DNA from: Raja brachyura
Lineage: Eukaryota
Reading direction: 5' to 3'
NCBI GenBank assembly: GCA_963514005.1
Contig: OY740783.1
Span: forward strand, 27,652,001-27,716,000
DNA length: 64,000 nt
A model generated the notes under the pieces. It did no database searches, was not told the origin of the DNA, and was given only the letters and a program-made list of their open reading frames with translations. Below, piece by piece: positions 3,640 through 43,447 of the stretch. Position numbers and translations under genes: made by a program. Numbering within the stretch: the stretch's first letter is position 1; each line of letters starts with the position of its first letter.

Positions 3640-4595
3640 CTGGATCTCAAATGATAAACAGAGTACAGGAAGAATATGGTGAGCTGAGGAATATGGTGTC
3701 AAGATAACAACCCCTTCCTCGATGTCAGCAAGACGAATGAGCTAGTAATTGATTTCAGGAATTAAGTTGGTGCACATTAATGTTGCCAAAATGTCAGCAT
3801 TAATGTTGCCAAAAGTGAAGATGGTCAAGAGTTTAAATTTCCTATGAGTAAATATCACCTACAATCTGTTCTACACCAACCACATTGAAGCCTCAATGAA
3901 GAAAGCAGGTGGGAAGAATGTCCAGGAGCGGAAAAGACTGCAAAAAGTTATGAACACTGCCCAGTCCATCACTGGTTCTGACCTCCCCACTATCAAAGGC
4001 ATCTATTAAAGTCGCTGCCTCAAAAAGGCAGCCAACATCATCAAAGACCCACACCATCCTGGACATACACTCATTTCACAATTGCCATAAGGAAGAAGGT
4101 ACATGAGCCTGAAAACTGTAATAGAAACATAGAAACATAGAAAATAGGTGCAGGAGTAGGCCATTCGGCCCTTCGAGCCTGCACCGCCATTCAATGTGAT
4201 CATGGCTGATCATCCAACTCAGTATCCCGTACCTGCCTTCTCTCCATACCCCCTGATCCCTTTAGCCACAAGTGCCACATCTAACGCCCTCTTAAATATA
4301 GCACGCCCTCTTAAATATAGCATTAAATATAGTAATGTCCAGGTTCAGGAACAGCTTCTTCCCTACTGCCGTCAGGCAATTAAACACAACAACAAATAAT
4401 TTCTGAACTACAACAGGCTTTTATTATTATTGCACTATATTTATTTATTTATTGAGTATGCATGTATGTGTGTATATATACACTGGACTTTTTGTCTCCA
4501 TTATGTAATATGTTTACATATTCTGTTGTGCTGCAGCAAGTAAGAATTTCATTGTCCTATCTGGGACATATGATAATAAAACTCTCTTGACTCTT
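3640..4595 (+). mobile_element. Rex/Babar-like LINE 3' fragment interrupted by a CR1 tail
   Basis: Similar to the RT-bearing copy at 13915-15822 (WCQDNNL.LNVSKTKE-type coding remnants); ends aataaaactctcttgactcttg. Confidence 0.65.
4122..4318 (-). mobile_element. CR1 LINE 3' tail
   Basis: (CATAGAAA)n tail plus ggtgcaggagtaggccattcggcc...catggctgatcatccaactcagtatcc, matching the 3' end of the long CR1 at 62704-62912. Confidence 0.85.
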
Positions 4596-5194
4596 GCCTT
4601 TCCTTCTCAGAAGATTGAGGAAGTGTAGTATCCAATGACTCTTATTAAACTTTACAGAAGTACCATAGAAAACATCCTATCTAAATGCATCAAAAGCATG
4701 AAAGCACACACCACCAGATTGAAGAACAGCTTCTTCCCCACTGTTATCATTCTCCTGATCGGACCTTACATGATCTAAGTGTATTGTATTGATCACCCAA
4801 CCTACTATATTGCAGCCCTTGCAATATTTTTTAAGCTGCATTTTCCCCATAACTGTAACAATAAGATGCCGTAACACTATACTCTGCACTCTGGTAATAC
4901 CTGCTGTACTTGTGTATGCCTTGATTGCACTCATGTATAGTATGATTTGACTGGGTAACACACACAAAGTTTTTCATTGTATCTCGATACACATGATAAT
5001 AATAAAAGAATATCTATACTAATACCATAAAGACACAGTTCTTGTGGTTAGCACTATGCATCTGTGAACACACATGATACACATAGTCTTAAGGTGAGAT
5101 GGGCAATGTTTAAAGGATACATTTTATACAGAGGATGTGTGCTTGGAATGCACTTCTAGGGATGTTGGTTAAGGTCATAATGTTGTAAGGTGGT

Positions 5195-15462: not shown

Positions 15463-16191
15463 AAAGATGAGTCACATCCTGGCCACTCCCTCTTATCTCA
15501 TCTCCTATCAGGCAAAATGTACAAAAGTATGAAAATGCACACCTCCAGATTCAGGGACAGTTTCTTCCTAACTGTTATCAGGCAACTGAATCATCCTACC
15601 ACATCCAGACAGCAGTGCTGAACTACTATCTACCTCTTTGATGACCCTTGGACTATCCTTGGTTGGCTTTACCTTGCACTAAACGTTATTCCCTTATCAT
15701 GAATCTATACATTGAAAATGATCGATTGTAATCATGTGTTGTCTTTCTGCTGACTGGTTAGAACGCAACAAAAGCTTTTCACTGTACCTCGGTACACGTG
15801 ACAATAAACTAAACTGACTGACGGAGTCTTTAAACATACTCTAGATTGTTTCTTGAACCAATGCTGTATGTGGAAATATCACTAAATTAGCACTAGTGTC
15901 AGAGAATCTAATTCAAAAGTATTCACTCTTTTATCCTGAACAAGCAACATGAGAGTCAGTGCAGCAATCCTAGAGTAGGCATTAATTATTTTTGTCAGAG
16001 CTTAGACTACAGTAAACATATTGGATATTGTGATGTATGTAATATAATTAGCATATGTTATGTCTTATGCGAGGGGACGCATACGCTGGGGGAGACTCAA
16101 GGTGGCGTCCTGGAATAAAGAAGCTTGTTAGTTTACTCCTGTATCTGAGTGTTATTTTAAGTCAGTTCCAAGCACCCAAATACACTACAAT

Positions 16192-16209
16192 TGGCGACGA
16201 GGATGGGAT
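16192..16209 (+). promoter_or_regulatory. Primer binding site, tRNA-Ser(GCU)-type
   Basis: TGGCGACGAGGATGGGAT, 2 nt after the 5' LTR; complementary to the vertebrate tRNA-Ser 3' end ...ATCCCATCCTCGTCGCCA. Confidence 0.85.
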
Positions 16210-17376
16210 GGAGTTTGTGAACTCACCCGCAGGACTGTTTTGCAACACGCAGGATTGGTTGCCAGTTTAAACAGTAGATACGGAGTTGTGTCGCAGTTGT
16301 TTGCGAGCTGGACATGAGAGGCCTGCAGATCCCTCTAAGCATGGGACTGTAGTTTAAAACATCAGCTGTACAAGTCAGGCTATCTCTATGTTGTGTCTAC
16401 GTGGCAAGATGTCGGCCTTCGGATTGTTACATATTTTAGACTGAGTTTTTTTTTTGTCGAATTCCTCAAGCTGAATAATCTTTGTACAGTTAAGTTTTAG
16501 GTGAATTGTTACACCAACACACACAACAAGGATAACGAGGCAACGAGGATAAAAGAACAGAAAAGGAAAGAAGAAGGGCTGTCAAGAGAAAAAAAAGTTA
16601 AAAAGAAGAGGTTATGTTTGGAAACAAAGTGGTACGGCACCAAGCAAAAAGATTTGGCGCCAAATGGTTTTGAATTGGCGCCAAAGAAAAGAAAGGTCGG
16701 AACATGAAGCAAGGAAAACAAGTGGGGTAGTAAGTGTCACCGAAGAACGCAGCCGAAAGCTGGAAGCCTAACCAGCAGGACAACGACAGTGTCAACTTAT
16801 CTGGAACGCTTTCCAGGGCCGTGCAGCCACAGCAAAGGTGCAGCCGCCACTGACTTTGGGTGAGTTCCAGGGCCGTGTACCGTGTAGGCCATGGACAGGT
16901 CTGGTGACTGCCACCGATTTTGGATGTTTTCCAGGGCTGTGTAGCCCACAGCCAGGCCCAGGAGCTGCCACCGACGTCGAGTGAGGGCCTAGTACCGGGT
17001 AGGCCATGGACAGGTCCGGAGAAGCCACCGACAAAAACGGAGTCAACCCGGCCAGGAGCAGAGATAGCCCGGTCGTGAGAGAAAGCCCGGTCGCAGGAGA
17101 CGACCGCGAGCTGAGAAAGCCCAGCTGCAGGAGACGACCGTGTGCAGAGAAAGCCCGGTCGGGAGCAGTCAGCCCAACCGTGAGCAGAAAAGAGAAGCCG
17201 ACTGCGAGAGAGAAGCGGAACCGGCCGAGTGAAAGAGCCGACCGCGTGAGAGAAGCGGACCAGGCCCCGTGAGAAAAGCGAGAGAAGCGGACCAGGCCTC
17301 GCGAGAAAAGCGGAACACAGCACTTGGGCCGAGTGAGAAAGTGAGAGAAGCGGACAAAAGCCAAAGCCGAGAGTCA

Positions 17377-17793
17377 AGACAAGCAGTCATTTCGATCCAG
17401 AGATGGTACAAAGCATGCAAAATAGGGCATTCCCAGTTTGTGCAATATCAGTCAATGAGGTATCGAACCATTACCGTTCAGGCTGTCTACAAGGGTATGG
17501 TGGTTAGGCAGTGGATTAAGCAAAAGAGGGCTACTGCAAAAGTTCAGTCAGTACTTCGTATGAGTTGGAATAGGAAAGACCTAAGGGGACAAATAGCTGC
17601 ACAACAGAAAAGGCTGAAATGATACAAAAGGCTTAAACAATATAGGAAAGACTTCCTCAAACTGAAATATACAACAGTTATAGTGCAGTCTCACTACCGT
17701 GCTTGTGTAGTAAGAAAACTATACAGAGCACAAATCAAAGCCACTGTTGTATTGCAAAGACAATATAGATCCTACTTCTTGATGAATAACCAG
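17377..17793 (+). pseudogene. Captured ASPM-like IQ-repeat fragment
   Basis: IQRWYKA, VQAVYKG..VR, VQSVLRM, VQSHYRA, LQRQYRS in one frame; Q-to-Q spacing 27/22/23/23 aa once a 72-bp insert is removed; one in-frame TGA at 17620 lies within that insert. Confidence 0.75.
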
Positions 17794-18535
17794 AAAGGTG
17801 ATTTAAGAAGGCAAGTAAATGAACAACAGAAAAGGCTTAAACAATACAAAGAACGGTTAAATAAATGTGTGACGATGAGCAAAAAGCTGTTAATAGAAAA
17901 GTCTAAATAAGAGAGGCTTGTCGGTTGAGACAAAAGTATGCAGGACCGATTGCGATTAGGACACTTCACTATAGTCCAGCATGGAGCAATGGACAAATGG
18001 TTATGCATTGCAGAATGTTATTATACAACAAGAGCAGATAAATTCACCAGGAAATTGAGCAACAGAGGAAGCTGCTAGAAAACGAATACCTGCAGTCATG
18101 TGTCAGATCCCACCTACAAATAAGGAACAGAAACAAATGGAGCCGAGATGGAAAGGTTAACTTTAGCAGAATATTAAGAACAGGAAGAAATCTGCAAATT
18201 GGATTAGGATATTTAAAAAGGGAAGAGGCAGAGATACAGGTAGAGATAGAGTGATTAGAAAGAGTGCACAATTTACACAGAAGGGAACGGAAAAGGATAA
18301 CACATAAAGCAAGGGGTTTAAGGAAGATGAGTGGAATGAAAAATGATAAGTGCTAAGTTTAGATACGATTATTACAGTTATGAGGATGTAATGTAAGATG
18401 ACTGTAAAAATGTAATTTTGCAACAATGTGTTAATCAATTATATTTACGTAATAGAAATGGTATTATCCACCTCCAAGTTAAAGGGGGAGCAGTGTAATG
18501 TATATAATGTAAATGGTGTTACCTGCCTCCAAGTT

Positions 18536-18548
18536 AAAGGGGGAGCAG
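18536..18548 (+). promoter_or_regulatory. Polypurine tract
   Basis: aaagggggagcag directly before the 3' LTR TG; a duplicate lies at 18481-18493. Confidence 0.8.
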
Positions 18549-18747
18549 TGTGATTTATGTAATATAATTAGCATATGTTATGTCTTGTGCGAGGGGACGC
18601 ATGCGCTGGGGGACACACAAGGTGGTGTCCTGGACTAAAGAAGCTTGTTAGTTTACTCCTGTATCTGAGTGTTATTTTAAGTCAGTTCCAAGCACCCAAA
18701 TACCCTACAGATATACAATAGGAATGCCAATTGAGAAGTCCTTTAAA

Positions 18748-18987: not shown

Positions 18988-19947
18988 CAAATCATCTTAA
19001 TCTCAGTTCAATTCAGTTTAGTTTATTGTTATGTGTACCGAGGTACAGTGAAAAGCTTTTTGTTGCCTGCTAACCAGTCACCAGAAAGATAATACCTGAT
19101 TACAATCGATCCATTTACAGTGTATAGTCTCATGATAATAGAATAGAGTTTAGTGCAAGGTAAAACCAGCAAGTCCGATCAAGGTTAGTCTGAGGGATAA
19201 TCTCCAGAGTTCTTCAATCGTTACCCTAGACATCCTCTTCTTTAACATCCTGAGTCAAAGTTAACTTGTAAAGCTTTCTGTCAGACATTTCTAATGCATT
19301 TAAAGCACTTGTTTGTGTTGGCAAGCACAGGACCTATTTATCTGTTACAGAATGATAGGCGCAAGCATTTAGATCAGAAGCACCTCTTCCTGTAGAAGTG
19401 AAGGTTATCACAGCATGAAGCTTTCATTCGACTGGATCTTTCTAAGTCACCCAGGAGAAATGTGTCACATCAGGCAACTTATAGTGTACATATTTATCAA
19501 GCTAATAACAAATGCCATGTTCAGAGGGGCAGCACCTTCATCTCCTCCTTTCAACAGATGCAGCAGCTGGAGAGGATGTAAGCCTTCCCTAGGAGTCTGT
19601 TTTTCTCCATGGACAAGGGCAAAGATTTCCCCTGTGTACATTAATCTTCTCCATATCAACTAAGTAACGTGTTGTGCCATTTGTAATATTGATTGTGCTC
19701 CAGGGATTAAGAATTTAAAGATTGTGCAAAATGTTTGAGGTGAAAAACAAACTGCTGAAGGAACTCCGCAGGTCAGGTGGCATCTGTGGAGATAGATGGA
19801 AGTCCAACATTTCGGGTTGAGATTCTGCATCAGCATCTCAGCTGGAAACATTGACTATTCCTCCGTCTCCACAGATGCTGCCTCACCCATTAAGTTTCCT
19901 CTTGCAGTTTGTTTTTTTTTTGCTCCACATTCCAGCATATGTCTAGT

Positions 19948-42360: not shown

Positions 42361-43447
42361 CTAGACTAAGTGGGACCCGTTGGGTCCCATTCTCACACAA
42401 TATTTGGTTGCGTTGGGGGACCAGGTAGCCAATAGCCCCCAACTGAGCAGGTGCCGCTGACGGGCTCGTTGTGATGCTCTTGATCACTCACTCACTCAGC
42501 ATGGCTTGCGGGCTGACTCTCTCACTGAGCATGGCTTTCGGGCTCACTCACTCACTCACTCAGCACGGCTTGCGGGCTCACTCACTCAGCACAACAGAAT
42601 ATGTAAATGTTGGTTATCCTAAAATATCCTAAAATGTTGGTTATCCTAAAATTTATCTTTCTTCAGAATACAGAATGAGAAAATTATCATGCCTATTTTT
42701 ATTTGCAGATAATCTGCAATATTCAGTAAACTCAACTCAAAGTTCCAGTAATTGGGTACTTCATGTTATAAAAGGGGCCAGAAATATTTGAAAATTACAC
42801 CTTACTTTTAGACCCCAGTGGGACAGGCAGCATGTCTGGAGAGATCAGCACGGCTCACTCAGCATGACTTGCGGGCTCAGTCAGCACGGCTTGTGGACTC
42901 ACTCACTCAGCACAGCTTGCGGGCTCACTCAGCACGGCTTGTTAACTCACTCAGCATGGCTTGCGGACTCATTCAGCACGGCTTCTTGACTCACTCAGCA
43001 CGGCTTGTGGACAATCAACCCGGGCTTGTGGACTCAAACAGCATGGCTTGCGGACTCATTCAGCACAGCTTGCGGACTCATTCAGCACGGCTTGTGGATT
43101 CAATCAGCGTGGATTGGGGAATGACTCAGCGCAGCTCACGGACCCAGCCCTGCCTCTGGGGTTTAATCTCCTCACCCAGATGATTGACAGCCGGTGCCGG
43201 AAGGAGCTTTACATTCATGGTGACTGACAGGGGAGAAGACCAATCTGCTGATCACATGACATTTTAAACCTTCATAACTTTTGTAATATTCGACCGATCG
43301 GAACAAAACTTCTTGCGCTTGGAGCAGAGGAGAATGGTGAGTAAGGTGGTGAAAAAATCCTAGTGATATATGGTACAATTTTTGCACATATTTAAAAACA
43401 ATGCAAACCGGAAGAGGACAAGATGAGAGATTTTGTAATAGTATAGA
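42361..43447 (-). mobile_element. Non-autonomous Helitron
   Basis: The - strand begins TCTATACTATTAC and ends gggacccAACgggtcccacttagtCTAG (subterminal hairpin + CTAG); inserted between A and T with no TSD; internal minisatellite. Confidence 0.88.
42485..43140 (+). repeat. Minisatellite (ctcactcagcacggcttgcggg-type, ~22-26 bp units) inside the Helitron
   Basis: Many degenerate tandem units, interrupted at 42587-42844. Confidence 0.85.

Follow-up and report, generated by a model that had tools for sequence, protein, structure and literature searches.

The window analysed here is a stretch of 64,000 nucleotides from Raja brachyura (OY740783.1; C3:27652001-27716000 of a 2.7-Gb genome), and it contains a complete LTR insertion at 16029-18709 (Table 1). 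The whole set of cis signals that had been predicted, i.e. 161-bp LTRs of about 95% identity, a primer binding site (PBS) for tRNA-Ser, a polypurine tract (PPT) and the target-site duplication (TSD) GATAT, was found again. The LTRs have TG...CA ends and agree at 153 of 161 positions (95%, 8 mismatches), and together with the PBS, the PPT and a TSD within the usual 4-6 bp they mark the insertion as an LTR retrotransposon. With the PBS pattern, 26 matches to the 3' end of tRNA-Ser(GCT) were obtained in the genome and 0 with the control, and the loci that were scanned turned out to be tRNA-Ser(gct) in 3/3 cases. On either side of the element, two short interspersed repeats in inverted orientation (84-96%; window 15664-15817 and 19013-19168) probably represent unrelated SINE-like copies, and tandem arrays with units of 22 bp and 26-34 bp occupy window positions 42484-43130.

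Table 1. Coordinates of the LTR element and its captured pieces, numbered from the first nucleotide of the window.
Feature	Position	Strand	Basis
Target-site duplication, left copy, 5 bp GATAT	16024..16028	.	Flank comparison
5' LTR, 161 bp	16029..16189	+	Repeat comparison within window
PBS for tRNA-Ser(GCT), 18 nt	16192..16209	+	Complementarity to tRNA 3' end
5' leader, G+C-rich degenerate repeats (units 57-58, 34, 32-40 bp)	16210..17340	+	Window self-comparison
Junction of private ~2-kb deletion	17341..17377	+	Alignment to full copies; left end approximate (within repeats)
Captured ASPM IQ-exon piece A, 3 IQ motifs	17378..17580	+	90.1%/203 bp, ungapped, to L075 3753-3551
72-bp in-frame insert (one 11-bp repeat counted): TLK2 51 bp + short duplication	17578..17640	+	82% to TLK2 exon L083 5919-5969
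Captured ASPM piece B, 2 IQ motifs	17641..17803	+	90.2%/163 bp to L075 3562-3400
Captured spliced TLK2 mRNA piece, five exons, intronless	17798..18304	+	80-90% to host exons; GT/AG ends; protein matches
3' UTR with 55-bp tandem duplication	18305..18548	+	Homologous to 3' end of gag-pol relative L105
Polypurine tract	18536..18545	+	Sequence
3' LTR	18549..18709	+	Repeat comparison within window
Target-site duplication, right copy, GATAT	18710..18714	.	Flank comparison

The leader is non-coding in full copies of the element and is shared in part with gag-pol relatives. Further downstream, the five expected IQ-like motifs are present (17395, 17476, 17542, 17683 and 17752) with spacings of 27, 22, 47 and 23 residues, and the Pfam IQ profile scores 26 bits in one frame (above the cut-off) and 18.8 in the other (below it). 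As also predicted, no gag or pol family was detected in the five frames of the window copy that were scanned against profiles. The 72-bp segment between two 11-bp repeats (17570 and 17642) is real: the alignment to host ASPM is interrupted exactly there, and removing its 24 residues reduces the spacing of 47 to 23, in agreement with the host IQ spacing of 23, 27, 22, 23 and 23.

The proposed ASPM origin of the IQ DNA could be substantiated. A search with the ASH domain led to one host ASPM locus with a 1999-codon IQ-rich frame about 30 kb downstream, and the IQ DNA is 87-90% identical at the nucleotide level to this large IQ exon; in the protein search, too, relatives of the IQ part carry the name ASPM. 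Pieces A and B are adjacent in the host exon and both align without gaps at about 90%, and full copies of the element hold about 1.03 kb of it at 87-89%. The ASPM cargo falls within one host exon, and for this piece an RNA route is presumed. The host IQ exon itself (L075 6401-3551) contains at least four internal repeats about 657 bp apart, which are 83-87% identical to the cargo.

The frame that follows the IQ motifs matches tousled-like kinases (up to 89% in the protein search), and the host TLK2 locus was located via its kinase domain. Five consecutive TLK2 exons, which in the host span 10 kb (C34:11395917-11406084), are directly joined in the element; they encode the coiled coil upstream of the kinase domain, which itself was not captured. 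Since the four introns are gone, this cargo passed through spliced mRNA. TLK1 was rejected as donor (68-77% compared with 80-90% for TLK2). Thus, the suspected second captured piece at 18045-18250 is indeed captured, although it extends farther than assumed and its TLK2 identity had not been foreseen. One of the captured TLK2 exons also supplied 51 bp of the insert within ASPM. Among 77 measurable copies, this insert is of identical length in 52 and missing from three. These three group with the host row at an SH-aLRT of only 82, a weak hint that the insert arrived after the ASPM capture; it may also have been lost through the 11-bp repeat.

The window copy itself is dead. A deletion of about 2 kb eliminated the remaining leader, the start of gag, the 21-bp repeat and about 0.68 kb of the ASPM sequence, and its junction (17340-17378 region) occurs once in the genome even with up to 3 mismatches allowed. 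This deletion accounts for two parts of the original prediction that had to be abandoned: the element is not miniature, as full copies measure about 4.5 kb, and the R/E/K-rich repeats running into the IQ motifs belong to a frame of 129 aa (17233-17622) that the private deletion created, which is why we rejected this frame as a product. Nor is a calmodulin-binding product to be expected from the window copy, because its gag start is deleted and stops occur at 17620 and 17908.

At the genomic level, the LTR query gave 644 first-look candidates, of which the best 40 were scored (95-100%), and the IQ segment gave 245, again with the best 40 scored; the scored LTR and IQ sets lie at 92-100%. A 23-mer spanning the ASPM-TLK2 junction is found at 95 sites with at most 1 mismatch (control 0), and the junction's presence at 95 or more sites identifies the cargo as mobile and not as a post-insertion event. 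Among 40 loci selected by gag alone, 39 carry ASPM and 33 have both genes within 3.3 kb. The near-duplicate loci L050, L043 and L104 were removed before counting, and L098, L099, L100 and L103 are without cargo. A typical copy of about 4.5 kb consists of leader, gag start, a variable number of 21-bp repeats, ASPM, TLK2 and 3' UTR, with the cargo in sense orientation. In 29 two-LTR elements, a set that includes one helper row and two near-duplicates, the two LTRs are between 88.5 and 99.4% identical (median 95%), and exact 5-bp TSDs are present in 11. Most two-LTR copies measure 3.4-5.6 kb and have a gag-derived frame inside, and LTRs that are 73-98% alike divide the family into several subfamilies. 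Segmental duplication was dismissed as the source of the copy number, as flanks and TSDs differ. TRIM elements are short (under about 1.5 kb) and non-coding in their interior; with a usual length of 3.4-5.6 kb and a gag-derived frame, the family does not belong to this class.

Some loci show further rearrangements. In L098 (C109:63000-71000), the 21-bp gag linker repeat has grown behind the gag start into an array exceeding 4.5 kb, a satellite derived from the element. Additional units of 48 bp TLK2 and 132 bp ASPM inside the element (L115, L139, L135, L106, L118, L093) probably arose via crossover between the two TLK2 starts, and the chimeric copy in L088 contains, nested at 4224-5063 (minus strand), an integrase-like piece that stems from another element. 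The tRNA-Ser(GCT) 3'-end matches are clustered at C38 14.03-14.43 Mb and C39 1.5-4.7 Mb, and several chimeric copies are also located on C39.

Four helper-like loci without a cargo match (L099, L100, L103, L105) have the LTR (73-76%), the leader and the 5' part of gag in common with the chimera, and together they encode gag, zinc knuckle, protease, RT and integrase (Pfam gag, protease, RVT_1 and rve). These gag-pol relatives display the Ty3/Gypsy domain order, with RT upstream of integrase in L103, and through their LTR, leader, gag and 3' UTR the chimera is, judged from sequence, a Ty3/Gypsy element as well; we take the autonomous relatives to be perhaps Mag-like. With cis signals present, pol absent and a helper family in the same genome, the predicted non-autonomous LTR family is confirmed. 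The gag-pol relatives would have supplied the proteins, and the LTR similarity of 73-76% suggests that the actual helper copies were not the gag-pol loci examined. A search with RT returned a few dozen close matches, many of them partial. Helper-family RT fragments recur every 20 kb at C55:14868297-14989469 and 15583149-15659714, forming a large tandem array.

The architecture of the chimera also allows insights into the capture. The first 85 Gag residues are retained (59% identical), followed by a jump to a stretch near residue 209, and the capsid C-terminal part and the zinc knuckle are deleted. The match to L105 resumes in the 3' UTR where TLK2 ends, hence the cargo replaced the interior of the element. 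At the switches, both sides have 14 nt in common for repeat/ASPM and 5 and 4 nt for ASPM/TLK2, and at the 3' switch the TLK2 and element matches overlap by 8 nt. These shared letters are compatible with the template-switch model as set out in PMC5131818. As in known LTR-mediated retrocopies, the cargo i) derives from mRNA without introns (as judged from TLK2), ii) replaces internal ORFs with microsimilarity at the switches and iii) underwent secondary retroposition with common switch points. We therefore envisage that a Ty3/Gypsy-type element co-packaged host mRNAs and that template switches at short common sequences would have exchanged most of gag and all of pol for about 1 kb of ASPM and 0.5 kb of spliced TLK2. 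The chimera, which retained LTRs, PBS and PPT, would then have been copied by related gag-pol proteins to at least 95 sites. We regard capture and spread as practically certain. The two genes may have been caught because both mRNAs are plausibly abundant in germ cells.

The family extends beyond Raja brachyura. The Leucoraja erinacea protein XP_055489032.1, annotated in RefSeq as 'ASPM homolog isoform X1', consists of the gag start, 7-residue repeats and then ASPM, and is 72% identical over 288 aa to a Raja brachyura copy, being the sole match at that length among 338 candidates. As a gag-ASPM element product, it places the family in Leucoraja erinacea and shows that the annotation was misled. 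Four sequencing runs of uncertain kind were assembled to contigs. A spliced TLK1 junction was found in X15 and X16, and contigs bridge the ASPM-TLK2 junction in X14, X16 and X17, where the kind of run is a guess and the contigs may be of intronic or DNA origin; they do not enter our evidence.

For the question of whether the chimeric frame was under selection, 91 copies were compared with host ASPM and TLK2. The spacers are multiples of three in 63/77 measurable copies for ASPM/insert/ASPM, in 67/78 for ASPM/TLK2 and in 41/71 for gag/ASPM, the last being out of frame in 30/71. The junctions are mostly in frame. None of 62 copies possesses an intact frame (starting from gag, the longest runs for 318 codons and the median is 84.5), and 5-15 breaks are present in each of 35 well-covered copies. 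Private changes are neutral, with an omega of 1.04 and 98 stops where 88 are expected. That the gag ATG is retained (62/64) was discarded as evidence, because it is biased by alignment ends.

The pattern of shared changes differs from this neutral decay. Counting as shared the indels common to three or more copies, the first 1509 bp of the frame (gag, ASPM and TLK2 codons 1-97) have 1 shared versus 193 private non-triplet indels, whereas the non-coding parts have 19 versus 130 (p 8e-7). When element copies serve as the reference, the contrast persists in weaker form (p 7e-5 and 0.002), now with 3-5 shared frameshifts in place of 1, and 39 young copies compared in this way give p 0.013 and 0.059. 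Shared substitutions are not commoner in the non-coding parts. Among subfamily-diagnostic cargo substitutions (74 copies), the counts of nonsynonymous, synonymous and stop changes are 38/27/0 compared with 908/284/84 among private ones (p 0.003, with clades defined on the same columns as those tested); p is 0.02 with larger clades and 0.03-0.05 on transitions alone. In the two other frames, 10/61 and 3/58 diagnostic changes are stops. The diagnostic N/S is about half of the private one, most strongly in TLK2 codons 1-97 (8 N, 13 S, p 0.0002), and a CpG artefact behind this synonymous excess was ruled out by the persistence of the signal without CpG-creating changes. Diagnostic gag changes comprise 12 N and 4 S. 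In frequency bins from 6 copies to 80%, omega is 1.01 for ASPM and 1.19 for gag, i.e. there is no clear constraint on either in this dN/dS measure, which is diluted by recurrent changes; near-fixed differences from the host number 55 N versus 24 S.

Farther downstream in TLK2, the frame is shifted across the family near codons 99, 120 or 130, and 145, followed by a stop at codon 163 in 41/60 copies, and foreign reading frames cover about 46 codons of TLK2. In the frame entered by these shifts, two stop triplets of the host persist in 0/57 and 2/56 copies, while a third is sense in 11/13 reading copies and deleted in 22, compared with a stop in 15/22 non-reading copies (p 0.0045). Shifted-frame stops were lost in 2/3 cases versus 8/65 elsewhere (p 0.054); in all these stop statistics the copies are not independent events. 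The tree is star-like (terminal branches 3.10, internal 0.32). On balance, we consider selection on the open frame probable.

The explanation that we favour, and hold to be probably correct, is a non-autonomous Ty3/Gypsy family resembling maize Bs1, whose chimeric frame was selected in cis under mild amino-acid constraint. According to the statistical evidence, lineages in which one long frame stayed open from the start of gag almost to the 3' UTR would have done better during the spread, and each copy would have decayed neutrally after insertion. A product shared in trans benefits its own element little, and we therefore read selection on inner branches as a sign of an effect in cis. The likeliest cause would be a cis benefit of translation, by which the RNA escapes premature-stop decay or the Gag N-terminus engages its own RNA during translation, with the cargo mainly filling the frame with sequence that is free of stops and weakly constrained. 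Foreign-frame stretches, a loose linker and tolerated residue changes in combination with avoided stops fit a requirement for translation as such. For the cis mechanism we infer by analogy from IAP and Ty1: the IAP 1delta1 fusion protein is described to work in cis (PMC6466679), and the stability of Ty1 RNA may need some translation, although defective Ty1 is reported to be efficiently mobilised in trans (PMC3945221). Since, in addition, bovine D-type ERVs are described to have spread without any intact ORF (PMC10924933), such a need is not general.

Alternatively, the cargo could have been a neutral passenger, captured in frame by chance and carried along in a burst too brief to break the source frames, with no frame selection at all. 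The star-like tree, the private omega of about 1.0 and the weak p values in the young set would agree with this, as would the report that young LTR retrocopies are often in frame (14/17; PMC5131818). However, divergence from the host on the shared branch amounts to about 8%, and the 65 diagnostic changes in the cargo include 0 stops, while other frames take stops; the non-coding parts accumulated 19 shared non-triplet indels, and the same stops were avoided via different changes in different subfamilies. This makes pure chance improbable. A further reading assigns a function to the fusion protein itself: its Gag N-terminal domain would enter helper particles, and the IQ array or the TLK2 coiled coil would steer them in germ cells via calmodulin, spindle or chromatin partners. 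The reduced diagnostic N/S with its focus in TLK2 codons 1-97, the 78 bits reached by the IQ motifs in one copy and the cis-acting IAP 1delta1 fusion protein (PMC6466679) speak for it. The missing capsid C-terminal part and zinc knuckle, the roughly 46 TLK2 codons in foreign frames, the many family-wide residue changes where the host region is 93-100% conserved to ray protein, the 24-residue insert that disrupts the IQ register and a linker that varies freely in 21-bp steps argue against it, and we judge it unlikely. Likewise doubtful is the broader proposal that a new host-derived fusion of capsid N-terminus, ASPM IQ array and TLK2 coiled coil, beyond mere translation, drove germline spread in skates in the manner of a gag-onc capture for selfish transposition.

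Domestication, finally, would mean one host-selected source locus, or a small-RNA regulator of ASPM/TLK2, that sheds copies. It could invoke the gag-ASPM frame annotated as RefSeq protein in Leucoraja erinacea and the occurrence of family sequence in sequencing runs of several organisms. Against this stand the lack of intact copies (0/62, at most 318 codons from the gag start), the 5-15 breaks in each of the 35 copies, the presence of several subfamilies with LTRs 73-98% alike and, as a weak point, 0 long fusions among 33 protein matches of 509-2000 aa, leaving it very improbable. We therefore adhere to the Bs1-like family with a frame selected in cis.

What is new about this family lies in degree and testability: a vertebrate two-gene chimera became a multi-subfamily family with a footprint of frame selection. 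LTR gene capture as such is already known, the animal cases described in the literature consulted for comparison being single loci or few copies, and about 90 copies permit a test that is impossible with single cases, namely of selection on captured coding sequence during transposition. As the frame stays open while its residues are only weakly conserved, we suggest that elements may pass through a filter for in-frame captures ahead of any host selection, which would preload genomes with translatable chimeras. In practice, skate genomes can be expected to yield false ASPM/TLK2 paralogues and mismapped RNA-seq reads, and one RefSeq 'ASPM homolog' is already such a product.

In the literature searched, with repeat databases and subscription papers outside its scope, we found no paper that brings together ASPM, TLK2 and a retrotransposon, and related literature listings contained no comparable element. 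Acutely transforming retroviruses such as E26 are helper-dependent and carry gag-onc fusions of two host genes. The chimera resembles this type in joining a Gag N-terminus to two spliced host pieces under helper dependence, and differs from it in that env or infection is not seen here, amplification took place in the germline, the TLK2 kinase domain is absent and the cargo has decayed. Maize Bs1 is, as described, likewise an LTR element with unlinked host-gene fragments in one hybrid frame, common switch points and secondary retroposition (PMC13317346, PMC5131818, PMC7264820). In contrast, Bs1 is reported with 1-5 copies in Zea (PMC5131818), compared with at least 95 copies and several subfamilies in a vertebrate; it is also reported to be transcribed and translated, whereas every copy examined here is broken, and the population-level sign of frame selection sets our family apart from Bs1 as described. 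The animal LTR-mediated retrocopies of Tan et al. 2016 share partial mRNAs in place of internal ORFs, microsimilarity, sense orientation and further retroposition, and include multi-gene chimeras, e.g. a four-gene mouse locus (PMC5131818). Unlike our large family with subfamilies, the cases described there are single loci or few insertions (5/7 in zebrafish), and they include no cartilaginous fish (PMC5131818). A parallel for the frame itself is mouse IAP 1delta1, which is non-autonomous with an in-frame fusion ORF that, as reported, aids its own retrotransposition in cis, and which exceeds its helper in new insertions (PMC6466679). However, IAP 1delta1 fuses its own gag and pol (PMC6466679) and IAP is an ERV, whereas the Ty3/Gypsy-type chimera described here has filled its frame with host mitotic-gene sequence.
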